Below are positions 12,949-56,105 of a stretch of 57,521 nt of DNA, in pieces. Origin of the DNA: Patescibacteria group bacterium (GTDB lineage: Bacteria > Patescibacteriota > Minisyncoccia > Moranbacterales > UBA11712); assembly GCA_030018805.1 (NCBI GenBank), contig JASEHL010000001.1, forward strand, positions 1-57,521, given 5' to 3'. The position numbers were made by a program, and so were the translations under genes. Numbering within the stretch: the stretch's first letter is position 1; each line of letters begins with the position of its first letter. The notes below the pieces were generated by a model that saw nothing but the letters and a program-made list of their open reading frames with translations, did not search any database and was not told where the DNA came from.

Positions 12949-13921
12949 ATTTGGATTCCCGCCTATAGCGGGATCACACACCGCCGGACGAACGGTTTTC
13001 CCGTATCCTGGCGGTTTCCAACGCTGGATCAAACTGTTTTTTGAAATTATGTTTTTTGCCGAACTTTCGCATTTTGTTGCGAAGCCGTTGGATTCTTTCA
13101 AAGCCCTTGTCGGTCAGATGTTCCTTTTCCCGCATCGCGAGAACAATCTTTTTGAAAAGTTTGTAAACATCCGCCTTCTTGGCTTCGAGAGGATGGCGGT
13201 CAAGGAATGGGAAAAGGATTTCCGTCAAGTCTCGCGTGCTGGTCACTTTGAGTTTGGCATGCGGATGCCATCCATATCGTTCATACGAACAATCATAGAT
13301 TCTTCCGCAGCCGATCGTCGCGACTATGCGCTCGAGAATTTTTCGGTCATCATCCCGAAGTTCAATTTCAAACTCCGGCTTTATTTCCACTCCTCTTTTG
13401 AGAGTCTTGTGCCGGTTAATACTAACCGAGAAAGACCCTTCGCCATCAATGAATCCGGAAACATAATATGGATTCAGTTTTTTGCATTGGATTTGCTCCT
13501 TCCCAAACGGATCTTTCAAACGCGGATTGCGCTCGAAAGGCTTTCGCTTGGTACTATGAGCTCGGCTGACTTCTTGCATGGCTTGAATCAAAAATTACTC
13601 TTTGATTTTACTTTATAATTCTCGTGGTTAGTATACCACAGAATTAAAAGACCATACAAGATCTCCCTTGGTCACTCAATAAACATTTTGACGCCGTCTC
13701 GATAAACCGATACATATATATCTTATTTGAAGATGGCTTCCTCATGTACTCCCAGAGTCGCCAAATATATATGTATTTGTTGTTTATTCAAGCTGGCATC
13801 TGCTACTTTCACCCTTCAGTCCGATCCTCACGGAGTCGAACCTGTGATTTCGCTTCATGGATTCTTCAATATCCTTGGTCGGATTCACACCGACTAGCTT
13901 ATTGGGCTGCAAGGCACCCGA
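12949..13921 (-). other. about 0.97-kb intron-like insertion in the 16S rRNA 1390-1400 region
   Basis: It separates ...GGTCTTGTAC (13930..13922) from ACCGCCCGTCACACC (12948..). It contains a homing endonuclease ORF. The exact splice boundaries are not resolved. Confidence 0.7.
12974..13591 (-). CDS. LAGLIDADG homing endonuclease (single-motif type)
   Basis: 205 aa. YVSGFIDGEGSFSVSI is a LAGLIDADG motif. The ORF lies inside the rRNA insertion. Confidence 0.85.
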   Translation of the reverse strand: MIQAMQEVSRAHSTKRKPFERNPRLKDPFGKEQIQCKKLNPYYVSGFIDGEGSFSVSINRHKTLKRGVEIKPEFEIELRDDDRKILERIVATIGCGRIYDCSYERYGWHPHAKLKVTSTRDLTEILFPFLDRHPLEAKKADVYKLFKKIVLAMREKEHLTDKGFERIQRLRNKMRKFGKKHNFKKQFDPALETARIRENRSSGGV

Positions 13922-13983
13922 GTACAAGACCCGAGAACGTATTCACCGGGACATGGCTGATTCCCGATTACTAGCGATTCCGG

Positions 13984-14034
<51 letters not shown>

Positions 14035-14152
14035 GGATTGGCTCCGCCTCGCGGCTTGGCTACCCATTGTACCGGCCATTGTAGCATGCGTGTCGCCCAG
14101 GGCGTCAGAGGGCCATGCTGATTTGACGTCATCCCCGCCTTCCTCCCAGCCC

Positions 14153-14329
14153 GATGCGCACTCGCTGCGCGAGTGCTAAATTAAAAACTTAAAATTAAAA
14201 GTGAAAAATTATGGAGTCTCGCTGCGCTCGACAATTTACTTTATACATAAATAGTCATGCGCGAAGCGCATACCAGAATTTTTACTTTTTCATTTTTACT
14301 TTTTAACTTAGCGCGCGTAGCGCGCATTG
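14153..14329 (-). other. ORF-less intervening sequence in a 16S hairpin loop (E. coli about 1130-1140)
   Basis: The native stem cccagccc (14145-14152) pairs with gggctggg (about 14330-14337) and is extended by an insert. The insert arms aaattaaaaacttaaaattaaaagtgaaaaatt and aatttttactttttcatttttactttttaactta are complementary and have a 7-nt period. Confidence 0.6.
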
Positions 14330-14408
14330 GGCTGGGCAGTCTCGAGTGACACTTGTAACACTCGACAGGGGTTGCGCTCGTTTCCCGACTTAACGGAACA
14401 CCTCACGG

Positions 14409-14439
<31 letters not shown>

Positions 14440-15005
14440 CCAGCACCCTCGAAGGCTATCATGTTTCCATGATATGCAGCTGGATTTCAAGCCCTGGTGA
14501 GGTTCCTCGCTTATTGACGAATTGAACCGCGTGCTCCACCGCTTGTGCGGGTCCCCGTCTATTCCTTTGAGTTTTAAGCTTGCGCTCGTACTTCCCAGGC
14601 GGCCTGCTTAACGCGTTAGCTACGGTCCTGAAAGGGTCGATACTTCCAAGACCTAGCAGGCAACGTTTAGGGCGTGGACTACCGGGGTATCTAATCCCGT
14701 TCGCTACCCACGCTTTCGTGTCTCAGCGTCAGACAAAGCCCAGTTCACTGCCTTCGCCTTTGGCGTTCCATATGATATCAACGCATTTCACTGCTACACC
14801 ATATGTTCCATGAACCTCTACTTGTCTCGAGTGATGACGTTTCAGATGCGGCTCCAACGTTGAGCGCTGGAATTTGACATCTGACTATCATCGCCGCCTA
14901 CACACGCTTTACGCCCAATAAATCCGGATAACGCTTGAGGTCTCTGTATTACCGCTGCTGCTGGCACAGAGTTAGCAACCTCTTATTCCTACCGTACCGT
15001 CAGAA

Positions 15006-15437
15006 GTGAGATGTGAGAAGTTAGATGTGAGATTTTATTTCCATCTTTCCCTTAACCTGTATAATTGTTTGCCGATAATATCGTATTCTTCTATTAATTT
15101 ATCGGCAATATTTTTTTCTCCAAATTCAGCATTAACTGAATCTTCTATATGACTCATAACTTCATTACATGAACCTAGAGATCGAGTTAGATACAGCTTA
15201 AATTCCGCTATAGATCTTCCGTATCCTTCTGCAATATTCGAATGAATCGAATTTGCAGCTCTGCACATTTGATCTCTTAGATGTTTTGCTTCAAAGGGAA
15301 ATGTTTTTGTATAATTTACAATCTGTGGATACAATTTTTTTGATCTTTGGTAAACATCAAGATCTTTAAAACTTTTAATCATATCCAAATTATACAACAA
15401 TTATATCTCACTTCCCACCTCTCAACTCTCACCTCTT
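15006..15437 (-). other. intervening sequence in the 16S V3 helix carrying a four-helix-bundle protein gene
   Basis: The arms gtgagat/gtgagaa/gttagat/gtgagat (15006-15033) and atctcac/ttcccac/ctctcaa/ctctcac (15405-15435) are inverted 7-nt tandem repeats. The flanks are normal 16S sequence (..ACCAGAAGAAG and CTTCTGACGGTAC..). Confidence 0.65.
15035..15400 (-). CDS. four-helix-bundle protein (23S rRNA-intervening-sequence protein / Avd-like family)
   Basis: 121 aa. FKDLDVYQRS...FPFEAKHLRDQMCRAANSIHSNIAEGYGRS...EFKLYLTRSLGSCNEV fits the family pattern. It is in the same orientation as the rRNA. Confidence 0.8.
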   Translation of the reverse strand: MLYNLDMIKSFKDLDVYQRSKKLYPQIVNYTKTFPFEAKHLRDQMCRAANSIHSNIAEGYGRSIAEFKLYLTRSLGSCNEVMSHIEDSVNAEFGEKNIADKLIEEYDIIGKQLYRLRERWK

Positions 15438-15519
15438 CTTCTGGTAGAAAAGAAGTTTACAACCCGAAGGCCTTCATCCTTCACGCGGCGTCGCTCGGTC
15501 AGGCTTTCGCCCATTGCCG

Positions 15520-15550
<31 letters not shown>

Positions 15551-15610
15551 TTGGGCAGTGTCTCAGTCCCAATGTTGGGGATCATGCTCTCACATCCCCT
15601 ACCCGTCATA

Positions 15611-15648
<38 letters not shown>

Positions 15649-15809
15649 ACACAGGCCGCTCCTCAAGCGATAAATCTTTACTCCGAAGAGAACTATCTCG
15701 CATTATTCCCCCTTTCGAGGGATTATTCGAGACTCAAGGGTACGTTCCTATGCATTACTAACCCGTTTGCCGTGCCGCCAAAGGCGGCACGCGACTTGCA
15801 TGCCTTATC

Positions 15810-15849
<40 letters not shown>

Positions 15850-15989
15850 AATAAGAATTATTTCGATAAAATAAATTACCAAAATAATTTTGAGAACCCG
15901 GAATTTTTTGATAGAAATTCCGGCGAACTCTATAAAAGTAACTGATTTTGAATAGATCGTTTGGCACTTCCCCGACGTTACGTCGGGGC

Positions 15990-16015: not shown

Positions 16016-16017
16016 GT

Positions 16018-16076
16018 TTACCCTGTTAAATTGCGCCAGAGGCGCACCTCGCGAAGCGAGGATTTAACAGGGTGAA
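16018..16076. repeat. family-A palindromic element, copy 1 (intergenic, rRNA leader)
   Basis: The outer arms are ttaccctgttaaat and atttaacagggtgaa. They enclose two inner hairpins, tgcgcc-aga-ggcgca and cctcgc-gaa-gcgagg. Confidence 0.85.
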
Positions 16077-16465
16077 CCCCGACACTAATATAAGATTGGT
16101 GCGGGGTTTTCCTCATCAATTCTTTTGCTGGCAAATTGATGAGGATTCAGTTGTCAAGGTTCATCATAACTGCAAAGTGATGAGGGCAACATTGTTGCCC
16201 AAAAAGCTTTGAAGTTATAAATGCTTTGGGTTGATGGCAGGGGCGTCTAGGCCTATCCGCAATTCACCTCTTTCCGATCATTCTGGAAAGGCTCTGCCGT
16301 TTCATTGAGCCGACCTTTTAGCCGCGAGAGAAAGGTTTATCTCCCATTACTCTGCCTGCCTCCGGTCACCAACGCCACCAACCCAAATTTTATGTCTAAA
16401 GAACACAAAACACGACCAGAATAATCCGCAATATTTCTATTACAAACTATTCCAGTCGCGTCTTT

Positions 16466-16535
16466 CACCTTGCCCTGTTAAATTCTGGCGTAGCCAGACC
16501 TCGCGAAGCGAGGATTTAACAGGGTGAATTCACCC
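16466..16535. repeat. family-A palindromic element, copy 2
   Basis: Same outer arms. Inner hairpin 1 is changed by compensatory substitutions (tctggc-gta-gccaga). Confidence 0.85.
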
Positions 16536-16597
16536 TAATTATGGACTCAAAATGATCGACTTTTTCTTTTTTGAGTTAATTTTTAACGGCAAGAATA

Positions 16598-16625
16598 ATT
16601 ATAGCAGGCTGAAAAAACGTGTCAA
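16598..16625 (-). promoter_or_regulatory. near-consensus sigma70-type promoter facing the 16S gene
   Basis: On the minus strand, TTGACA (16625..16620), a 16-nt spacer, then TATAAT (16603..16598). It lies just downstream of the murD stop and about 740 nt upstream of the mature 16S 5' end. Confidence 0.45.
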
Positions 16626-16696
16626 GTGTCGCAAAAAAGGTTTGACCTTGAGGAATTTCGAGCGACAGCGAGAAAGGGAAAGGTCGAACCTTGAAA

Positions 16697-18121
16697 TCAA
16701 AGCCGCTCCACCGCCTCCCGAAATTTATCCCCCCGATCAAATTCATTGAGGAATAGGCCAAAGCTCGCCGCACCGGGAGAAAGAAGAACCGTGTCTCCTG
16801 GACCAGCGATATTTTTCGCCCGGATGACCGCTTTTTCCATCAAATCAAACTCGCTGTCAATAATTCCACTCCCAGAGTTGAACTCTGGGAGTTTGCCCAA
16901 TTCGGTTTTTATTTTCTCCGTTGCTTCGCCTTTGAGCAAAATAGTTTTTTTCACTTTTTCGGCAATGGCTCTTGCGAATTCTTTGAATTCCAGGTTTTTG
17001 TCCGCTCCACCGGCGATAAGAATCACGGGCTTGGAAAAAGAATTGATTCCCGCAATGGCCGCGTCCGGCACCGTCGCCGTCGTATCATTATAATATTTCA
17101 CTCCTCCGAGTTCTCGAACTAGTTCCAACCGGTGCTCAACGCCCTTGAAATTTTTCACCGCCTCGCAAATTTTTTCAGGCGCCACTTCAAAAGCAACTGC
17201 TGCGCCCACTGCCGCGAGAACGTTATACAAATTATGACCGCCGAGAAGTTTGACGTCGTTCAGGTCGCAGATGACTTTTTCTTCGTCTTTATCATTGAAT
17301 ATTATTTTACCTTTCGCGATGTAGACGTCCGACGTCTTAATCGTAGACGTCGGACGTCTACAGGATTCCGTCGAAAAAAATATTACTTGCGACTTTGTCT
17401 CTTTGGCCATTTCGCGCACAACTTCGTTGTCCCAGTTCAAAATGACATAATCATCCGCCTTTTGATTCGAGAAAATATATTTTTTGTCAGCAATGTATTT
17501 TTCCATCGAGCCGTAATAATTGAGATGGTCCCGATGGATATTGGTTATCACCGCAATATGCGGACTCGAGTTGGCACGGCCCAGCGCGGAAAGCCTCCAG
17601 CTCGAAAGCTCAAAAACGATGACTCCACTTTTTTCTCCTTCGATATTTTCCAGGAGATCAAGGACTGGTTTTTGTCCGATTCCGGCCGTGAAGACATTTT
17701 TGCCGGCCGTTTTCAAAATTTCCGCAATCAAGATAGCAGTCGTCGTTTTTCCCTTCGTTCCCGTCACTCCAATAACCGGCAGTCTGCACAATTTAAAAAA
17801 GATACTCGAATCCATTTCGACCGGAATTTTTTTATTGAGAGCCGCCTGAATATGCTTTGAGCTCCATGGAACAGCCGGGCCCTTCACAACCATATCAACA
17901 TTTTCAAAGTCTTCCATTCGATGTTGGCCAAGCACGAAAGTAACATTTTTGAGGTCTTTTAATTTCTTGAGTGAGGGTTTGAGCTCTTTTTCCGTTTTCA
18001 TGTCCGTCGCGATAACTTTCGCTCCTACGCCAGAAAAAAAACGAACGGTTGCCACTCCGCCGCCGTGCAATCCTATTCCCGCTACTGTGATTTTCTTGTT
18101 TTTGAAATCGGATTTCTTCAT
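16697..18121 (-). CDS. murD: UDP-N-acetylmuramoylalanine--D-glutamate ligase
   Basis: 474 aa. GIGLHGGGVATVRF..., GVTGTKGKTTT and the overall Mur ligase layout are present. It contains an in-frame palindromic insert. Confidence 0.9.
   Translation of the reverse strand: MKKSDFKNKKITVAGIGLHGGGVATVRFFSGVGAKVIATDMKTEKELKPSLKKLKDLKNVTFVLGQHRMEDFENVDMVVKGPAVPWSSKHIQAALNKKIPVEMDSSIFFKLCRLPVIGVTGTKGKTTTAILIAEILKTAGKNVFTAGIGQKPVLDLLENIEGEKSGVIVFELSSWRLSALGRANSSPHIAVITNIHRDHLNYYGSMEKYIADKKYIFSNQKADDYVILNWDNEVVREMAKETKSQVIFFSTESCRRPTSTIKTSDVYIAKGKIIFNDKDEEKVICDLNDVKLLGGHNLYNVLAAVGAAVAFEVAPEKICEAVKNFKGVEHRLELVRELGGVKYYNDTTATVPDAAIAGINSFSKPVILIAGGADKNLEFKEFARAIAEKVKKTILLKGEATEKIKTELGKLPEFNSGSGIIDSEFDLMEKAVIRAKNIAGPGDTVLLSPGAASFGLFLNEFDRGDKFREAVERL
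17321..17361. repeat. family-B palindromic element inside murD
   Basis: gtagacgtccgacgtct-taatc-gtagacgtcggacgtctac has perfect 17-bp inverted arms. It encodes CRRPTSTIKTSDVY. Confidence 0.9.
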
Positions 18122-18137
18122 GAAACTGGTCTGCGAA

Positions 18138-18196
18138 CTACGAATCTAGTACCAATATACAAATTCGTATATTCGTATGAGATTGGTAATTCGTAG
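18138..18196. repeat. intergenic nested hairpin with attcgta heptad arms, copy 1
   Basis: ctacgaat...taccaat...atacaaattcgtat...attggta...attcgtag. It fills the spacer between the deacylase stop and the murD start. Confidence 0.8.
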
Positions 18197-18197
18197 C

Positions 18198-19772
18198 CTA
18201 GTTTAAAATAAATTCTCCATTCATCTCACTTGTGAGTTTTCCATCTCGCAGAGCGAATTTTCCGTTTACAACCACTTCGCTGATCCCATCGGGATATTGA
18301 TAGGGACTTTCAACTGTCGCTTTATCCGCGATTTTTTCCGGATCAAATACGACTATATCAGCTTTGTAATTTTTCTGCAAAATTCCTCTGTCCTCGATTC
18401 CCATTTTTTCGGCCGGCATTGAAGTCATTTTTTTGACCGCCTCCTCGAGGCTCAAAAGTTTTTCTTGCCGAACATATTTTCCCAAGATTCGCGGAAATGT
18501 GCCAAAGCATCTCGGATGGACCAATTCGCCGGTATCTTTATGCGCGATATCGTATCCCGCTCCGTCCGAAGCGATAATTGAAAGCGGATGTTTGATCGTC
18601 TTCCTCACGTTTTCTTCGCTCAAGCATTCCATAATCGTAATCACTCTTCCTTCGCTCGCCACCAAAAGATCAACAATCGCTTCTTCAACTGAAATCTCGC
18701 GCTCTTTCGCGACCTCTGAAATTTTCCGCTTGGCGAGAGATTTTGCGAATGGACAGATGGCAATAACCGCGTCTTCATAGTGATACTGGGTTGTTTTTTT
18801 CATTTCTTCAATAATTTTTTCCCGCAGATGCTTCTCTTTGAGCCGGCGCAGGAACATCTTTTTCCCGCCCTCGGCCGCCCAAGCCGGCAAAAAGACATAA
18901 AGAACCGATCCTGTTTGGGTATAGGGATAAACATCAAAATTGATATCAACTCCCGCTTTTCGCGCTTTCTCGATTTCCGCCAAAACTTCGTCCATAAACG
19001 GCCAGTTTTTCTCACCCATAACTTTGAGATGGGAAATTTCGAGACTCACTCCCGTCTGCTTTGCAAGATCAATTGCCTCCTTGAGAGCCGCTAAGATGGA
19101 CCCCGCCTCGTCGCGAAGATGAGTTGTGTATGGCCGGTTGTACTTCTTCAAAATTTCCGCGAGTTCCACCAACTCGTCCCAAGTTGCCGATTTTTCATGG
19201 GAGTACGCCAAGCCCGTCGAAAATCCCATCCCGCCTTCCGAAAGCGATTTATCCAAAATTTTTCCGACCAAGTCAAGTTCATTTTGATCAAGACGGCGCA
19301 TTTCATCAAGTGCCACGCCCCGCCGCAAAGTTCCGTGTCCCACCAGCGAACCGAAATTGACCCCGAATTTTCGCTCACGCATTTTTTCAGAAAATTCCCC
19401 AAAAGACAACCAATCGACATTCACTTCTTTTATGTCCGCCCATTTCTGGATCGATTCGATTATTTTTCCGTCCGTGAGCGGCGCGATGGAAGCCCCGCAA
19501 TTTCCGCCGACGATTGTCGTTACGCCCTGGTGCACAAGACTTGGAAGCCGCGGATCAAGAAACAGCCGCCAGTATCCGTCGGAGTGGTTGTGCATGTCGA
19601 TGAAGCCCGGCGCGACAACTTTTCCGGAGGCGTCAATTTCCATTTTTCCTTTCGCAAATCCCAATTTTCCGATCTTCGCGATTTTGTTTTTGTTCACGGC
19701 GACATTGGTTTTCATGCCCGGTTTTCCAGTGCCGTCAACAACAGTACCGTTTTTTATCAGGATATCGTACAT
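18198..19772 (-). CDS. N-acyl-D-amino-acid deacylase (D-aminoacylase) family amidohydrolase
   Basis: 524 aa. The N-terminus is typical of the family: YDILIKNGTVVDGTGKPG...IDASGKVVAPGFIDMHNHSD. Confidence 0.8.
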   Translation of the reverse strand: MYDILIKNGTVVDGTGKPGMKTNVAVNKNKIAKIGKLGFAKGKMEIDASGKVVAPGFIDMHNHSDGYWRLFLDPRLPSLVHQGVTTIVGGNCGASIAPLTDGKIIESIQKWADIKEVNVDWLSFGEFSEKMRERKFGVNFGSLVGHGTLRRGVALDEMRRLDQNELDLVGKILDKSLSEGGMGFSTGLAYSHEKSATWDELVELAEILKKYNRPYTTHLRDEAGSILAALKEAIDLAKQTGVSLEISHLKVMGEKNWPFMDEVLAEIEKARKAGVDINFDVYPYTQTGSVLYVFLPAWAAEGGKKMFLRRLKEKHLREKIIEEMKKTTQYHYEDAVIAICPFAKSLAKRKISEVAKEREISVEEAIVDLLVASEGRVITIMECLSEENVRKTIKHPLSIIASDGAGYDIAHKDTGELVHPRCFGTFPRILGKYVRQEKLLSLEEAVKKMTSMPAEKMGIEDRGILQKNYKADIVVFDPEKIADKATVESPYQYPDGISEVVVNGKFALRDGKLTSEMNGEFILN

Positions 19773-19782
19773 TTTTTTATTT

Positions 19783-19841
19783 TTACCCTGTTAAATTCCG
19801 CCTCTGGCGGACCTCGCAAAGAAAGGATTTAACAGGGTGAA
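19783..19841. repeat. family-A palindromic element, copy 3 (between murI and the deacylase gene)
   Basis: ttaccctgttaaat-tccgcctctggcgga-cctcgcaaagaaagg-atttaacagggtgaa. Confidence 0.85.
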
Positions 19842-19843
19842 TT

Positions 19844-20611
19844 TTATATTTCTATTTTCAAAATCTTCACTCTCTTCCCTAATATCTTCCCCGCCAATTT
19901 CTCAAAATGAGGGGTTAGATCACTCACAAAATATTCGTCTTCACTTGGAAATCCGGTTTCCAAGTCGGTTTTTTCCAGTTCTTTTGCTAATTTTTCGCCC
20001 GAAGCGATCACTTTGGTTCTGCGTCCCATCACGCCGGAAATAATTTTTTCAAGCAAAGGATAATGTGTGCACCCCAAAAGCAAAGTGTCAATTTTATTTA
20101 ATTTTAATTCGCGAAGATAAGTTCGGGCGATTTTTCTTGTTTCCGGGCGCTTGATCCAATTTTCTTCGACTAAATGGACAAAAAGCGGACAAGCTTTGGT
20201 GAAAACTTCTATTTCCGGATCAAGCTCTGAAATCTTTTTTTTGTAGACACTGCTGTTGATGGTTGCTGTGGTACCGATTACTCCAATTTTTTTGTTTTTC
20301 GTCGCTTCAACTGCCGCCTCCGCGCCGGAACTTACGACATCGTATATTTTGAGATCCGGATAAATTTCGCGAAGATAATCCGCCGCCAAAGCCGACGCGC
20401 TATTACAAGCAATAACGATTGTCCGACAACCTTTTTTCTTCAAAAATTCCGCAATCTCGCTTGAAAATTTCTGAATCGTTTCTTGGCTTTTATTTCCGTA
20501 CGGCAACCGCGCCGTGTCGCCGAAATATATAATCGGAGCGTCCGGCAAAATTTTTTTTATTTCTTTGACAACCGTCAACCCCCCCACTCCGGAATCGAAA
20601 ACACCGATCAT
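19844..20611 (-). CDS. murI: glutamate racemase
   Basis: 255 aa with IGVFDSGVGGLTV, IVIACNSASA and LLGCTHYP. Confidence 0.9.
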   Translation of the reverse strand: MIGVFDSGVGGLTVVKEIKKILPDAPIIYFGDTARLPYGNKSQETIQKFSSEIAEFLKKKGCRTIVIACNSASALAADYLREIYPDLKIYDVVSSGAEAAVEATKNKKIGVIGTTATINSSVYKKKISELDPEIEVFTKACPLFVHLVEENWIKRPETRKIARTYLRELKLNKIDTLLLGCTHYPLLEKIISGVMGRRTKVIASGEKLAKELEKTDLETGFPSEDEYFVSDLTPHFEKLAGKILGKRVKILKIEI

Positions 20612-24067: not shown

Positions 24068-26271
<2,204 letters not shown>

Positions 26272-26272
26272 A

Positions 26273-26938
26273 CTATTCTAACCACAGCTTTTCATCTTGC
26301 TTTCTTTCGCGAAAATCCGCGATATTTTCGGCTGCATATTCAAAATATTCTTGAGAATTTTTAAATTGGCTTAAAATAACTTCTTTTTTGCACAATTGAT
26401 TGCTTTCTTTTCCTAAATATTCGGGAAAGCCGCACCATCTATAATTTCTGGCAGGATGTATTCCGTGTATCTCGCTGTTGCAATTCACATACACCGACAT
26501 GCGAAGAAAATTATTTGGTCCGATGCGCATTGATTTGAATCTTCCTTGAAAAAGCACGCCGCTTCTTTGATTCTTTTCATTGAAATATTTTGTGTAACTG
26601 TTTCCTAACCTTTGCATAAATATCTTTATCCCATTATTATCTGCAGTTTGTTTCAAAACGAAATGATAATGATTAGAATTGAGGCAATATGCAATAATTT
26701 CAACTAAGGGATTCCTTTGTTTAACATTCGCCGCCAGAAAATTTTGCACCGATTCTCTGGGATGATTCTCTTTGTAATCCCGCCACCTAATCATTAAACC
26801 GTCTTTTTTGTCATTTAGTAAATCCATAGCCAATAAAAATCTCTCAAAATATCTGTCGCTTAAAAACACATCCCGTTTATCAACGCCGCGATTGTATATG
26901 TGATAGTATTCATTTTCCACAAGAGGATTCTTACGCAT
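26273..26938 (-). CDS. REP-associated tyrosine transposase (IS200/IS605 TnpA-like, HUH-Y1)
   Basis: 221 aa with EYYHIYNRGVDKRDVF, the HUH motif NSNHYHFVLKQ and NSYTKYFN...GVLFQGRFKS. Confidence 0.8.
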   Translation of the reverse strand: MRKNPLVENEYYHIYNRGVDKRDVFLSDRYFERFLLAMDLLNDKKDGLMIRWRDYKENHPRESVQNFLAANVKQRNPLVEIIAYCLNSNHYHFVLKQTADNNGIKIFMQRLGNSYTKYFNEKNQRSGVLFQGRFKSMRIGPNNFLRMSVYVNCNSEIHGIHPARNYRWCGFPEYLGKESNQLCKKEVILSQFKNSQEYFEYAAENIADFRERKQDEKLWLE

Positions 26939-26947
26939 CTTCTTTTG

Positions 26948-27045
26948 ACCCTAACATTCAATGTTAGGGTAGCATATTTTTGAAGAAAACAAAAGAGCGG
27001 GTTTTCTAATGAATCCGCCCTTACCCTAACATTGAATGTTAGGGT
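26948..27045. repeat. pair of class-C REP palindromes upstream of the RAYT gene
   Basis: accctaacattcaatgttagggt (26948-26970) and accctaacattgaatgttagggt (27023-27045). Confidence 0.85.
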
Positions 27046-41802: not shown

Positions 41803-42540
41803 GTGCACTTTTTTGTCAAAATAAAAAAAATCATTCTCGACACTCTTTTTCCCGTTTCTTGCCTTTCCTGCGGCGCGCCCGAACATTGGGTTTGCGAGCA
41901 ATGTTTCGCCGAAACAAAGATGCGCGAACAGCAATCTTGCCCTTGGTGCGAAAAAATCGCCACACTGAAGGGAAAACTCTGCTTTTTTTGCAAAGAACAG
42001 AAAAAATCGCGCCTTGACGGCCTTGTAGCGGCTGTTTCATACGAAAATCCCTTTGTGAAACAGGCGACATACAATCTGAAATACCGCTTTGCCTCCGAGC
42101 TTGCCTCGCCTCTTTCAGAAATACTTCTGAAGTCGCTTTTGGAAAATGACATTTCTCTTCCCAAATATGTCGTTCCCGTTCCCCTGCACCGGCGGAGACT
42201 CCGCTGGAGAGGATTTAACCAAAGCCAACTTCTCGCCGAAAAAATTTCCGCTGGGCTGGCGCCTCCGGTGAAAATCGAAATGCTGGATGCGCTGGAAAGA
42301 AGAAAGCACAAAAAACCGCAAATGGAAATCAAAAAATACAGGGATCGCCTCGACAACGTCAAGGGAATATTTTCTCTCAAGACCAAGCCTTCAAAAATCA
42401 AAGGCGCCCGGATTTTGCTCGTGGACGACATCGCCACGACCGGCGCCACTCTTCAGGAATGCGCAGGAGTTCTGAAAGAAAATGGAGCAAGATATGTTTT
42501 CGCCGCCGTCATCGCGCGGCAAACCATGAAGCAAAATTAA
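41803..42540 (+). CDS. comF: ComF family phosphoribosyltransferase-like protein
   Basis: 245 aa with an N-terminal CxxC...CxxC motif and the PRT motif ILLVDDIATTGATL. Confidence 0.8.
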   Translation: MHFFVKIKKIILDTLFPVSCLSCGAPEHWVCEQCFAETKMREQQSCPWCEKIATLKGKLCFFCKEQKKSRLDGLVAAVSYENPFVKQATYNLKYRFASELASPLSEILLKSLLENDISLPKYVVPVPLHRRRLRWRGFNQSQLLAEKISAGLAPPVKIEMLDALERRKHKKPQMEIKKYRDRLDNVKGIFSLKTKPSKIKGARILLVDDIATTGATLQECAGVLKENGARYVFAAVIARQTMKQN

Positions 42541-42546
42541 AAAATA

Positions 42547-42610
42547 TTCACTCTGTTGAATCCTCCCCCGGAGTGGGAGGTGCGCCTGCGGCGCAATTCA
42601 ACAGGGTAAA
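42547..42610. repeat. family-A palindromic element, divergent copy (after comF)
   Basis: ttcactctgttgaat-cctcccccggagtgggagg-tgcgcctgcggcgca-attcaacagggtaaa. Confidence 0.75.
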
Positions 42611-48262: not shown

Positions 48263-48820
48263 TTATGGCTTGATTGAAAACCGCCACAAATATTCCCGGC
48301 AGTATTGGGCGTAGTCAATGCCGATTCTCTGGGATTTTTTTATTTCCGAAGGTCGAACCTTCGGAATTCCTTTTTCGAGCCACAATTTTTCCCCTTTTGT
48401 TATGTCCCATTTGTTGAGTTTTCGGTCGATATGCAAAAATTTACAGAGTTTTCCGGGGCCATCCAAGTAGACGTCCGACGTCTTCGACTTTGTAGACGTC
48501 GGACGTCTACAAAGTTTCGCTCCCCTAATCAAAACCGCCGCCGGGAAATCTTTTTTCTCGGTGACGATGTTGAGGCAATGGTACATTCCATAAATCATAT
48601 AAACATAAGCGCAGCCCGGCTCTCCGTACATCACTTCTGTCCTTGGAGTTCTCCCCCGCGAAGCGTGACAAGCCAGATCGTCCTCGCCGTGATAGGCTTC
48701 GGTTTCGATGGTCATCGCCCGCCAAATTTTTCCGCGATATTCGCGCATCAAAAAACAGCCGAGAAGATCCCGGGCAACTTTCAAAGTATTTCGCCGATAG
48801 AACTTTCTATTTATGATCAT
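48263..48820 (-). CDS. 3-methyladenine DNA glycosylase (AAG/Mpg family) with two in-frame palindromic inserts
   Basis: 185 aa with TLKVARDLLGCFL, IETEAYHGEDDLACHA and AYVYMIYGMYHCLNIV. Confidence 0.85.
   Translation of the reverse strand: MIINRKFYRRNTLKVARDLLGCFLMREYRGKIWRAMTIETEAYHGEDDLACHASRGRTPRTEVMYGEPGCAYVYMIYGMYHCLNIVTEKKDFPAAVLIRGAKLCRRPTSTKSKTSDVYLDGPGKLCKFLHIDRKLNKWDITKGEKLWLEKGIPKVRPSEIKKSQRIGIDYAQYCREYLWRFSIKP
48346..48364. repeat. class-E palindrome inside the glycosylase gene
   Basis: ccgaaggtcgaaccttcgg encodes PKVRPS. It is related to the class-D REP sequence. Confidence 0.8.
48467..48510. repeat. family-B palindromic element inside the glycosylase gene
   Basis: gtagacgtccgacgtct-tcgacttt-gtagacgtcggacgtctac encodes CRRPTSTKSKTSDVY. 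Confidence 0.9.
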
Positions 48821-50021
48821 CTATTGCTTTTTTATAAACTTCCAGCATTCTTTTCGCGCAAACGGAAGAGGTGTATTTTTCCCTTGCAATCTTTCCCGCT
48901 TTTTCCCCGAAATTTTTCCGCAAATTTTCATCATCAATCAATTTCTGAACGGCATGTGAAAACTCTTCCTTATCTTCCGCGACCAAAAATCCCGTTTTTC
49001 CATCTTTGATAATATCTTTCGCGCCGGTCGCCCGCACCGCCACAATCGGCAAGCCCGAATACATCGCTTCCGTCAAAATCATTCCCTGCGTTTCCGATTT
49101 TGAAGCGTAGACGAAAACATCTCCCGCGGCATAATAATCTTTTTTTTCTTTATCAGAAACAATGCCTATAAAAATAACTTTGTCATTAAGTCCAGTCTCG
49201 GAAACTTTTTTTATTAATGAATCCTTCAAATTTCCCTCACCGCAAATCATAAATTTTACCCTGTTAAATTGCGGCAAAGTCGCACTCCGACTTTGAGTCG
49301 GGGATTTAACGGGGTGAGCATCCTCATTTTTCTGCAAAACCTCCAAAACAGCATCGACTAAAAACTCGACATTTTTTTCAGCCGTGAGTCGCGTCATCAC
49401 AAAAAGCAGGATCTCATCTTCTTTTATTTCATATTTTTTTCTCACGCTCTCCCGATCCGGATTTTCAAATTGTTCTCCCTCCACACCGGTTGGAATAGCC
49501 GTGATGTTTTCGTTCGTCGCTCCCCACTTCCGGATTATTTCAATCACTGATGGCGTGGGAGCAACCACCGCGTCGCACCGGTCGGCATAATTTCTGGCGT
49601 TTCGGATCGCCCACCAGGCGGCGAGTCTTTGTGGAACGAAAGGGACAAAATGGGCATACTGGTCATAAAGCGTGTGCCAAGTGAAAACCAACGGGATATT
49701 TTTCTTCTTTGCCCAGCGCGCCGCGGCGCTTCCCAAAAGATTCGGATGCTGCGAGTGTATGATATCCAAATCCAATTCTTTCAGGATCTTGTCAATTTTT
49801 CGCGAATACGGAATGGCGATTGGAAACTTTATTTTGATATTCGTCTCAAATGCCGGGTAGCGGAAAACACGCGGATTGGTGTCCCGATATCCTTTCCAGC
49901 GCGGAGCGAAAATATAAACCTCGTGCTCCAGCTTTTCGAATTCCTTGCGAAAACTCTCAACAGACCCCGAAACGCCATAGGGATTGGGAAGATAGTTGTT
50001 GGTGAAAATGGCGATTTTCAT
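48807..50021 (-). CDS. GT4-family glycosyltransferase with an in-frame family-A insert
   Basis: 404 aa with a GT-B layout and the C-terminal motif ETQGMILTEAMYSGLPIVA (the E-x7-E region). Confidence 0.85.
   Translation of the reverse strand: MKIAIFTNNYLPNPYGVSGSVESFRKEFEKLEHEVYIFAPRWKGYRDTNPRVFRYPAFETNIKIKFPIAIPYSRKIDKILKELDLDIIHSQHPNLLGSAAARWAKKKNIPLVFTWHTLYDQYAHFVPFVPQRLAAWWAIRNARNYADRCDAVVAPTPSVIEIIRKWGATNENITAIPTGVEGEQFENPDRESVRKKYEIKEDEILLFVMTRLTAEKNVEFLVDAVLEVLQKNEDAHPVKSPTQSRSATLPQFNRVKFMICGEGNLKDSLIKKVSETGLNDKVIFIGIVSDKEKKDYYAAGDVFVYASKSETQGMILTEAMYSGLPIVAVRATGAKDIIKDGKTGFLVAEDKEEFSHAVQKLIDDENLRKNFGEKAGKIAREKYTSSVCAKRMLEVYKKAIDDHK
49256..49318. repeat. family-A palindromic element inside the glycosyltransferase CDS
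   Basis: ttaccctgttaaat-tgcggcaaagtcgca-ctccgactttgagtcgggg-atttaacggggtgag. It is 63 bp and encodes HPVKSPTQSRSATLPQFNRVK. Confidence 0.85.
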
Positions 50022-54956: not shown

Positions 54957-56105
54957 ATGCACTATACTTGTACCATGCTTATTCTTGCCATTGAAACATC
55001 CTGCGACGAAACGGCGGTGGCTCTTGTTGAGGAAAAAAGGGGCGGTTTTTTCGTAATTGACGAATATGTTTCTTCGCAAACAAAAACCCACGCGCCATTT
55101 GGAGGAGTTGTTCCCAATCTTGCGGCCAGGGACCACTTGAAAAATCTTCCTTTGCTCCTCAAAAAAATCATCGCGAAGAACAAAATCAAGCGGAATAATA
55201 TTGATTTGATCGCCGTGACGGAAGGTCCGGGACTCATTCCGGCGCTGCTCATCGGCACGAATGCGGCGAAGGCCATTGCCTATGCCTGGAAAAAACCGCT
55301 GGTCGGCGTGCACCATATTGCGGGACATATATATGCGAACTTCATTCACCTTGTTAAATCCCCGACGTCACGTCAGGGTGCGGCTTTGCCGCAATTTAAC
55401 AGGGTAAAATTTCCTATTCTCGCTCTCATTGTTTCTGGAGGGCACACGGAGCTCATATTCATGAAAAAGCATATGGATTTCAAAATCGTCGGTCAGACTC
55501 TCGACGACGCGGCCGGCGAAGCTTTTGATAAGGTGGCTAAGATTTTGGAGCTGGGCTATCCCGGCGGACCGATAGTTTCTCGGCTGGCAGAACTTTACCA
55601 AAGTTCGACTTTTCCCTCCCAACAACGGAGTTGTCGGGATTCCTCAAAGTCGAACTTTTCGCTGCCGCGGCCCATGATCAATTCAAATAACCTCAATTTT
55701 TCCTTCTCTGGCCTGAAGACCGCCGTACTTTATACCATTCGAGACAATCCGAAAACTCTGAAAAGCAAAAAACTGACCAGCGAGCTTTGCGCCGAATTCC
55801 AGCAGGCCGCGATTGACGTGTTGGTGTCAAAAACAATTCGCGCGGCCAAAAAATATAAGCCCAAAACCATTCTTCTCGGTGGTGGTGTCTCGGCCAACAA
55901 GGAACTGCGCCGCCAGCTCGGCGAGATCATAAAAAAACAGATACCAGATACCAGATACCAGATACCAGATACAAAATACTCCCTCGACAACGCTGCCATG
56001 ATTGCCGTAGCCGGATATCACAAGTGGAAATTTTCGAAAAACAGGAAACCGTTCTATAATAACTGGAGAACATTCGAAGCGGACGCGAATCTTAAGTTGA
56101 ATTAG
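54957..56105 (+). CDS. tsaD: tRNA N6-adenosine threonylcarbamoyltransferase with three in-frame repeat inserts
   Basis: 382 aa with ILAIETSCDETAVA, VGVHHIAGH, SGGHTELI and NAAMIA. The likely start is MLILAI at 54975. Confidence 0.9.
   Translation: MHYTCTMLILAIETSCDETAVALVEEKRGGFFVIDEYVSSQTKTHAPFGGVVPNLAARDHLKNLPLLLKKIIAKNKIKRNNIDLIAVTEGPGLIPALLIGTNAAKAIAYAWKKPLVGVHHIAGHIYANFIHLVKSPTSRQGAALPQFNRVKFPILALIVSGGHTELIFMKKHMDFKIVGQTLDDAAGEAFDKVAKILELGYPGGPIVSRLAELYQSSTFPSQQRSCRDSSKSNFSLPRPMINSNNLNFSFSGLKTAVLYTIRDNPKTLKSKKLTSELCAEFQQAAIDVLVSKTIRAAKKYKPKTILLGGGVSANKELRRQLGEIIKKQIPDTRYQIPDTKYSLDNAAMIAVAGYHKWKFSKNRKPFYNNWRTFEADANLKLN
55347..55408. repeat. family-A palindromic element inside tsaD
   Basis: caccttgttaaat-ccccgacgtcacgtcaggg-tgcggctttgccgca-atttaacagggtaaa encodes LVKSPTSRQGAALPQFNRVK. 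Confidence 0.85.
55600..55658. repeat. palindromic insert (family G) inside tsaD
   Basis: The arms are aaagttcgacttt (55600-55612) and aaagtcgaacttt (55646-55658). It encodes SSTFPSQQRSCRDSSKSN. Confidence 0.8.
55939..55980. repeat. (ataccag)n heptad tandem array inside tsaD
   Basis: cagataccagataccagataccagataccagatac encodes IPDTRYQIPDTKY. Confidence 0.9.

Follow-up and report, generated by a model that had tools for sequence, protein, structure and literature searches.

A family of Y-shaped palindromes in a Moranbacteria contig

The DNA analysed here, hereafter the window, comprises the 57,521 nt of contig JASEHL010000001.1 from assembly GCA_030018805.1 (C11 in our numbering, in which C, G and L stand for contigs, genomes and loci), part of a 1.02-Mb genome of the Moranbacteria, in the candidate phyla radiation (CPR), that is 99.7% complete and whose best protein matches bear the name Candidatus Moranbacteria. 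The window contains six copies of a small palindrome, family A, in which two outer arms enclose two inner hairpins and which probably represents a mobile DNA element. All six copies listed in an initial annotation of the window are present, 1-3 nt from the positions given there (Table 1), and the variants of hairpin 1 that it quoted (tgcgcc/ggcgca, tctggc/gccaga, tccgcc/ggcgga and tgcggc/gccgca) are correct, copy 5 containing one G.T pair in this hairpin. Copies 4 and 6 lie on the minus strand and, consequently, the order of their hairpins is swapped when they are read on the plus strand.

Table 1. Copies of family A in the window, with associated genes
Feature	Position	Strand	Context and remarks
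Family-A copy 1	16020..16073	+	54 nt; in the 16S rRNA leader; arms with 0 mismatches
Family-A copy 2	16472..16525	+	Identified by arm match, covariance model and DNA fold
Family-A copy 3	19785..19838	+	Takes up most of the 71-nt spacer between two minus-strand genes
Amidohydrolase gene	18198-19772	-	Neighbour of copy 3
Racemase gene	19844-20611	-	Neighbour of copy 3
Family-A copy 4	42550..42607	-	58 nt; begins 10 nt past the stop codon of the phosphoribosyltransferase gene 41803-42540 (+)
Family-A copy 5	49258..49315	+	In frame within the GT4 glycosyltransferase gene 48807-50021 (-)
Family-A copy 6	55348..55405	-	In frame within tsaD 54957-56105 (+)
RAYT-like (Y1_Tnp) gene	26273..26938	-	Not part of family A; candidate mobiliser

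When a 12-nt arm was searched with at most two mismatches, 12 matches were obtained in the window, compared with 3.8 ± 1.6 in shuffled sequences (none of 100 shuffles reached 12), and without exception these matches form inverted pairs with a spacing of 52-58 nt. Folded as single-stranded DNA, every copy adopts a three-way junction made of an outer stem and two hairpins with zero unpaired bases at the junction, with energies from -17.7 to -24.4 kcal/mol (z -6.3 to -8.2; 0 of 200 shuffles as stable). Copy 1, to which a conserved unit with flanks at 16017-16076 corresponds, scores 79.5 bits with the covariance model described below and folds as DNA at -24.4 kcal/mol (z -8.2). The stem of the family, 12-15 bp of the form TTT-ACCCTGTTAAAT / ATTTAACAGGGT-GAA, is near-identical across phyla.

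Conserved pairing and probable exchange of hairpins

A covariance model of 55 positions and 24 pairs was built on ten copies, and 148 distinct sequences were aligned to it. Both strands of many copies are included in this set, the alignment is fitted to the model, and in part of the data the search pattern dictated the arms. Standard pairs occupy 98.1% of the cells of this alignment, compared with 74.7% after column shuffling and 33-52% when the partners are slid by 1-3 columns, and all 12 pairs of the inner hairpins vary on both sides. The initial annotation had proposed covariation as the test of its structural claim, and this test was passed: the covariation score reaches 0.559, against 0.134 in shuffles and 0.05-0.08 with slid partners. 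Some arm positions covary too, as in the change from GTTAAAT/ATTTAAC to GTGAAAT/ATTTCAC. Moreover, wobble pairs are rare, and such near-pure Watson-Crick pairing, valid on both strands, fits a DNA palindrome better than an RNA.

The same annotation had concluded that the inner hairpin is under selection for structure and not for sequence. This holds as far as the pairing is concerned, which is kept with double changes in 12 of 12 pairs, but not for the origin of all the variation since, judging from the sequences, much of the difference between copies looks like an exchange of whole hairpin modules rather than stepwise compensatory mutation. Some 15-nt hairpins, for example CCTCGCGAAGCGAGG and TGCGCCAGAGGCGCA, are found unchanged beside different partners. 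Stepwise compensation was found in one orthologous set, located in the 3′ untranslated region (UTR) of the rpsP-KH operon, where CCTCGC/GCGAGG in G015 is replaced by CCTCAC/GTGAGG in the genome of the window.

Filled and empty sites

Presence and absence in related genomes, a comparison already proposed in the initial annotation, was followed for 11 listed copies of G001 together with nine from G016 and G015, each set against genomes of the same genus (G011 and G014 in the case of G001), and both filled and empty orthologous sites were found within one genus. The pair L175 and L213 differs by an exact 54-nt insertion (A...T) within a T run, with no duplication. In a second case (L164 and L181), with flanks 97% identical, GAT|ATT corresponds to GAT-TA[ACCC...GGGT]AA-ATT, which represents 60 inserted nt. 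At other sites (L159 compared with L179/L182, and L165 with L177/L180) the element plus one base per side replaces 1-2 other bases, and a net gain of 60 nt occurs in a coding region (L158 compared with L184). None of the filled/empty comparisons revealed a target-site duplication, and the flanks of 53 copies are not direct repeats. Insertion boundaries, at sites rich in T/A, lie no more than 2 nt away from the A...T ends of the stem and show a variation of 0-2 nt on either side.

In another genus (G001, L163), an orthologue of copy 2 keeps its flanks and arms, down to a shared G variant, but both inner hairpins are wholly different, and the same site is empty in G011 (L187), a congener of G001. 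The copy downstream of rpsP-KH, for its part, is filled in three genera and empty in five congeners. The hairpin swap and the empty congener at the first site, together with the scatter at the second, indicate that loss, regain or exchange at fixed sites is frequent.

Distribution of the family

The genome-wide census with a covariance model that had been suggested for the six initial copies did find more of them: the genome has 25 distinct copies with two hairpins, to which one clear variant with a single hairpin and a few weaker ones can be added, and other genomes contain hundreds more. Six of the 25 fall in the window, which makes up 5.7% of the genome (Poisson probability 0.003). Among 30 relatives, the element is carried by 16 of the 18 genomes of the same family, with roughly 1 to 15 copies each, and is patchy in the other families of the order, while an even sample of Patescibacteria, searched with stricter filters, gave 15 carriers in 301 genomes. 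When 185,579 species genomes were scanned for exact 11-nt arms with a spacing of 26-56 nt, at least 119 loci were obtained, most of them in many classes of Patescibacteria, in Desulfobacterales (including a closed chromosome) and in Omnitrophota. Among 2.9 million viral contigs, the exact pattern had 0 matches and a relaxed pattern retrieved one true copy, on a 4.9-kb contig.

A variant found in WOR-3/Stahlbacteria shows the same arms around ~40 nt of non-hairpin sequence (L010, L014, L018, L044, L051, L103 and others), and a direct repeat, ATCTG(C/T)G(G/T)T, recurs 3 nt outside the arms; it is a distinct sub-family, whose insertion mode is possibly different. Interiors of this size suggested a CRISPR array, a candidate that was discarded as L103 shows isolated copies and no array.

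Ends, polarity and arrays

End conservation was scored on 53 copies of the commonest class. A T occupies position -4 in 52 and position -3 in 51 of them, an A occupies +3 and +4 in 47 each, and beyond ±4 conservation falls abruptly to background. The third position is asymmetric, with T.G (C.A on the other strand) in 55 of 180 copies, T-A in 6 and C-G in none, which gives the element a polarity. Of 38 scorable cases, 28 have the T.G strand antisense to the genes that surround or enclose the element (28 vs 10, p = 0.005; genes called with a simple open reading frame (ORF) rule). With respect to these asymmetric ends, the two-hairpin cargo is found in both orientations, the AAT-type hairpin being first in 16 copies and second in 11, and two loci of one genome (L168 and L169) are exact inverses of each other in cargo. 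Two explanations can be offered, either a true flip-flop inversion or an insertion either way round beside flanking bases derived from the target.

Where copies adjoin, they are arranged head to tail in tandems whose 4-nt junction, GGGT-NN-ACCC, is fixed. This applies to 27 loci with exact arms, one of which, L254 (3400-3520), contains an array of minimal units, ACCCTGTTAAAT-AGGCAAAGC-ATTTAACAGGGT-CA, repeated with a period of 35 nt. In L082, one element is nested in another, where it takes the position of a hairpin. In several Patescibacteria (L007, L042, L061, L088, L097 and L118), family A abuts the foot of another palindrome, AAAGGGYTTTGT-hairpin-ACAAAACCTTT, giving composite repeats; two of these, L007 and L118, belong to one genome and carry the family-A cargo inverted within the same composite context.

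Copies within protein genes

Insertion of family A is tolerated in frame in protein loops, as seen in tsaD and in the GT4 gene, a location of copies 5 and 6 that had escaped the initial annotation. The 58-nt core of copies 5 and 6 together with one base per side makes exactly 60 nt, or 20 residues each, and both inserts lie directly 5′ of AAA TTT (Lys-Phe). Copy 5 encodes residues 236-255 of the GT4 protein, HPVKSPTQSRSATLPQFNRV, and copy 6 encodes residues 131-150 of TsaD, HLVKSPTSRQGAALPQFNRV, a peptide similar to the former. The tsaD product is recognised by the Pfam TsaD model with 280 bits, and its insert occupies a loop between the conserved blocks HIYANF and FPILALIVSGGHT whose length is variable in all 14 orthologues compared; with relatives too diverged and this loop variable in all, no empty site could be established at the DNA level for this copy. 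In the GT4 protein, Pfam GT4 domains flank the insert on both sides. Most orthologues have 384-386 aa and lack it, and 5 of the 20 aligned sequences show HPVKS...QFNRV at the site of copy 5. The AlphaFold model of this protein has a mean predicted local distance difference test (pLDDT) of 83.5, and residues 237-251, with pLDDT <50, form a loop between a helix (218-235) and a strand (254-260). The genome has two more in-gene copies, at C6:9415 (membrane protein) and C17:11235 (glycosyltransferase), and among the matches listed ~10% of cross-phylum copies occur in long ORFs, read in the frames HPVK...FNRV or FTLLN...LTG.

Two other kinds of insert were observed in these genes. Three sequences of the GT4 alignment (P0002, P0005 and P0019) carry a different insert of ~23 residues, HP.TN....H.KIG.GV, at the same site (columns ~298-323), which, as far as the aligned sequences can tell, suggests a second element family or a hot spot. 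In tsaD, peptides derived from heptamer repeats (YQIPDTRYQ and similar) are found in frame in this genome and its relatives (L121-L133; residues ~325-340 in the window).

Resident transposases and the search for a mover

The RAYT-like gene of the window (RAYT, REP-associated tyrosine transposase; REP, repetitive extragenic palindromic sequence) has REPs of its own, ACCCTAACATT(C/G)AATGTTAGGGT, at ~26245, 26948 and 27023. As the initial annotation had it, these differ from family A, with which they have only the ACCCT/AGGGT stem base in common, and its observation that no mobilising enzyme is evident in the window was borne out and can be extended, since none was found in the genome-wide and cross-genome searches either. 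The Y1 genes of the genome comprise one of IS200 type and about nine RAYT-like ones (~220 aa, with partial matches to PF01797), and each RAYT-like gene is tightly flanked by its own perfect simple hairpin, these hairpins constituting dispersed REP families of 3-24 copies. In the 119 loci listed there is no recurrent family of neighbour genes within 2.5 kb, the largest cluster, of a tRNA synthetase, amounting to 5 loci. No autonomous parent, with arms 0.3-3 kb apart around a transposase, was found in the genome or in those 119 loci; arm pairs at this distance are chance pairs only (L085 and L117), and the longest variants, of 130-150 nt, are non-coding.

About nine REP-RAYT systems are unusually many for a 1-Mb genome (contigs C14, C18, C29, C81 and C82, and positions 26245-27045 of the window). 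A simple REP, CCGAAGGTTCGACCTTCGG, of the type that flanks the RAYT gene at C81:25770, also occurs at ~48346 in the window, in a methylpurine-DNA glycosylase gene (48263-48820).

Nature of the element

The results described above lead us to regard family A as probably a non-autonomous mobile DNA element of ~50-60 bp whose identity resides in its shape. Movement or processing of such an element would involve a single strand in folded form or an extruded cruciform, with the conserved stem as the putative recognition and cleavage site for a protein acting in trans and the hairpins required as structure only. The enzyme would not be encoded beside the copies, nor would it be a Y1 transposase of the RAYT/IS200 kind that all carrier genomes retain, and copies that last in transcribed spacers may secondarily serve as RNA hairpins. 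Some observations weigh against this proposal. The boundaries shift by 0-2 nt per side and several empty sites differ by 1-2 nt from the filled site minus the element, a variation that is untidy for a precise cut-and-paste enzyme. At the rpsP-KH 3′ UTR and GT4 sites, filled and empty states are scattered among genera, which requires that the element was repeatedly lost with precision or else repeatedly gained at a single hot spot. Core G.T pairs are somewhat commoner on the sense strand (99 vs 65, p = 0.01), which could reflect weak selection at the RNA level or a transcription-linked bias of deamination or mutation. Finally, mobility rests on the comparison of presence and absence, with no enzyme identified and no transposition intermediate seen, and as the element is almost absent from viral contigs, these offer no vector for its spread between phyla.

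The enzyme could be sought among the resident transposases, family A being then an unusual REP/REPIN family moved by a RAYT-like Y1 (HUH) transposase, for which the one of the window is the candidate, through an IS200/IS605-like 'peel and paste' mechanism. The lack of target duplication, the asymmetric ends and the strand bias of the element are in keeping with such an enzyme, as are the TTTACCCT...AGGGTAAA stem base common to family A and the REP of the window RAYT, and a genome endowed with an IS200 gene and about nine RAYT-like paralogues, each with a dispersed REP family; across 31 relatives, copy number even follows the number of RAYT-like genes, albeit weakly and with kinship ignored (Spearman 0.40, p = 0.03). 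The genes themselves, however, are not where they would be expected: none of the 10 Y1 genes in the genome is flanked by family-A arms, and a RAYT-like gene lies within 8 kb at just one of the 119 loci listed, where it is not adjacent. Nor do they co-occur with the element, as Y1_Tnp is present in 7 of 15 carriers compared with 139 of 301 genomes overall (odds ratio 1.0), and 14 carrier genomes have no match to the window RAYT at E ≤ 0.01, although the same query finds matches in 20 of the 31 relatives; G101, which is 100% complete and has about nine copies, is among those without a match. Moreover, sequence conservation is lacking in the hairpins, which are what a Y1 enzyme would read. The results on flanking genes, co-occurrence and neighbourhood disfavour a resident RAYT, which we find quite unlikely as the mover. 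A conserved host recombinase would be a different sort of mover, with family A as a gene-less, ultra-small mobile DNA exploiting an Xer- or integrase-type tyrosine recombinase that acts on the folded Y-shaped strand. The sequence TGTTAAAT, present in each arm, matches the XerD-binding arm of dif in its outer portion, as well as the GTTRRRY core found in integron sites, the orientation of the arms would put cleavage at the boundary of the element, and head-to-tail junctions of the form ATTTAACAGGG-TNNA-CCCTGTTAAAT set two arms face to face, like a recombination core site. Xer or integrase action would explain the conservation of the arms across phyla, the absence of a linked or co-occurring transposase, the lack of target duplication and the tandems; we nonetheless hold it to be unlikely. 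A dif-like site made from the arms or from the XerD-arm motif was also searched for in this genome, and nothing convincing appeared.

Two further possibilities do without a dedicated mover. The palindrome might stall replication and let nascent strands switch template between copies at microhomologies of T runs and A runs, a process by which the element would be copied to new sites rich in T/A and its hairpins inverted or exchanged. Boundaries that vary symmetrically by 0, 1 or 2 nt per side, T-rich left and A-rich right flanks, the lack of target duplication, hairpin modules common to copies with different partners, cargo inverted in some copies, and an enzyme association that was not found would all suit such enzyme-free spread. 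What it leaves unexplained is that arms of 12-15 bp are near-identical from Patescibacteria to Desulfobacterales while the hairpins drift freely, a combination that calls for sequence-specific recognition, and we consider this explanation very unlikely. Alternatively, the host might keep family A as a beneficial structured RNA or DNA signal, such as a terminator, an mRNA stabiliser, or a processing or protein-binding site. Many copies do lie in transcribed spacers (a 16S leader, an operon spacer, 3′ UTRs), the one in the rpsP-KH 3′ UTR is kept in three genera with a compensatory change, and G.U pairs are in slight excess on the sense strand. Against a host signal, copies occur in both orientations, within coding sequence, in tandem and nested; the same loci are empty in congeneric species; in 28 of 38 cases the sense strand shows C.A as the pair adjoining the stem; no U run follows the element; and pairing is near-pure Watson-Crick on both strands. 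Rfam 15 gave no match at the gathering score, and at E ≤ 1 only two chance microRNA matches (E 0.6-0.9). That the family is primarily a signal maintained by the host appears highly improbable.

Comparison with known elements

As a mobile element, family A has its closest counterparts among small palindromes of bacterial genomes. Like REPs and REPINs, it consists of short GC-rich palindromes with tens of dispersed copies, non-autonomous, found in clusters or tandems, with no target duplication and long persistence (PMC2817692, PMC3116915, PMC3733652), and genuine REP-RAYT pairs exist in the same genome. REPs are single imperfect hairpins, one end of which bears a conserved tetranucleotide, GTAG or CGTC (PMC3733652). 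Family A lacks this tag, its ends being TTTACCC / GGGTGAA, and instead of a single hairpin or a doublet it forms a three-way junction in which the outer arms are conserved and the inner hairpins free. It does not flank a cognate RAYT or show association with a Y1 transposase, its arms are conserved across phyla whereas REPs are lineage-specific, and ~10-20% of its copies lie within genes. Rickettsia palindromic elements (RPEs; Ogata et al. 2000, reviewed in PMC10969869) are palindromic selfish DNA of 100-150 bp, restricted to Rickettsia and found in frame in conserved protein genes. The likeness concerns the mode of working only, an in-frame palindrome in conserved genes (here tsaD and GT4) that is read as an extra surface peptide, while family A differs in being 50-60 bp long, Y-shaped and present in several phyla.

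Other comparisons concern the architecture of the ends. Elements of the IS200/IS605 group (IS608, ISDra2) and the palindrome-associated transposable elements (PATEs) have subterminal hairpins of conserved sequence that are recognised by TnpA. Family A resembles them in its two internal hairpins, asymmetric ends, absence of duplication, an adjoining short T-rich motif and strand bias, and a seamless loss is plausible in both. As its hairpin sequences are not conserved, they cannot be recognition elements in the manner of IS200/IS605; besides, the TnpA Y1 enzyme is absent from many carrier genomes, no full-length parent was found, and in place of a fixed tetra- or pentanucleotide the left flank is TT(T/C) in nearly all copies, with empty-site boundaries that differ by 0-2 nt. 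[quoted passage not shown] The small dispersed repeats (SDR) of Nostoc and other cyanobacteria, reportedly described by Elhai and colleagues in 2008 (Genome Research), are single hairpins of 21-27 nt, confined to cyanobacteria, nested and with compensatory changes. The likeness lies in the very small hairpins, the compensatory changes, the nesting and the co-occurring heptamer tandem repeats, which are present in this genome too; SDRs lack conserved outer arms enclosing two hairpins.

A structural analogy, and nothing beyond it, can be drawn with the T-shaped inverted terminal repeats (ITRs) of parvoviruses (adeno-associated virus and others), the telomeres of a linear viral genome processed by the Rep HUH-helicase. 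There, too, a sequence-specific stem bears two small palindromes of little sequence importance, with flip and flop forms, although family A consists of nothing besides the hairpin, and a Rep was not found. Integron attC sites were considered and rejected: they need the order 5′-RYYYAAC ... GTTRRRY-3′, in which the R box lies at the foot of the folded strand, and this order is reversed on both strands of family A (GTTAAAT ... ATTTAAC), and family-A copies, unlike attC, are not spaced by gene cassettes. In searches of the literature, nothing was found that describes the arm sequence or the features of the element. Family A is apparently a widespread, undescribed variant of small palindromic mobile elements, with a conserved stem, two free hairpins and no identifiable transposase.

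REPs, RPEs and MITEs are usually confined to one lineage and linked to a recognisable transposase, whereas the stem of family A is near-identical from CPR bacteria to Desulfobacterales and Omnitrophota and the rest of the element only has to fold. Finding its mover would define how a gene-less element of ~55 nt crosses phyla, and would explain how very small CPR genomes are remodelled, including the loops of essential proteins such as TsaD. In practical terms, the element offers a marker of strain-level variation in uncultured bacteria, a source of annotation artefacts to be recognised (extended ORFs, insertions in conserved genes), and a natural test case for structure-specific recognition of DNA.

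Other features of the contig and the genome

The 16S rRNA match whose leader holds copy 1 (13891-15855, minus strand) spans 1965 nt, compared with 1533 nt in the model, so that the gene carries an insertion of ~430 nt. Just downstream of it, at 13496-13609 on the same strand, there is a group II intron D1-D4 motif (48.9 bits). Elsewhere in the genome, contig C76 (586 nt) encodes an IS200-type TnpA, and a 36-nt sequence, GTCTAGAACAGCATAGAGATTTATGCTAAATCTATG, is found at the ends of contigs C4, C5, C10, C22, C24, C29, C34, C42, C56, C57, C62 and C81, where it probably represents the end of an insertion sequence whose many copies fragment the assembly.

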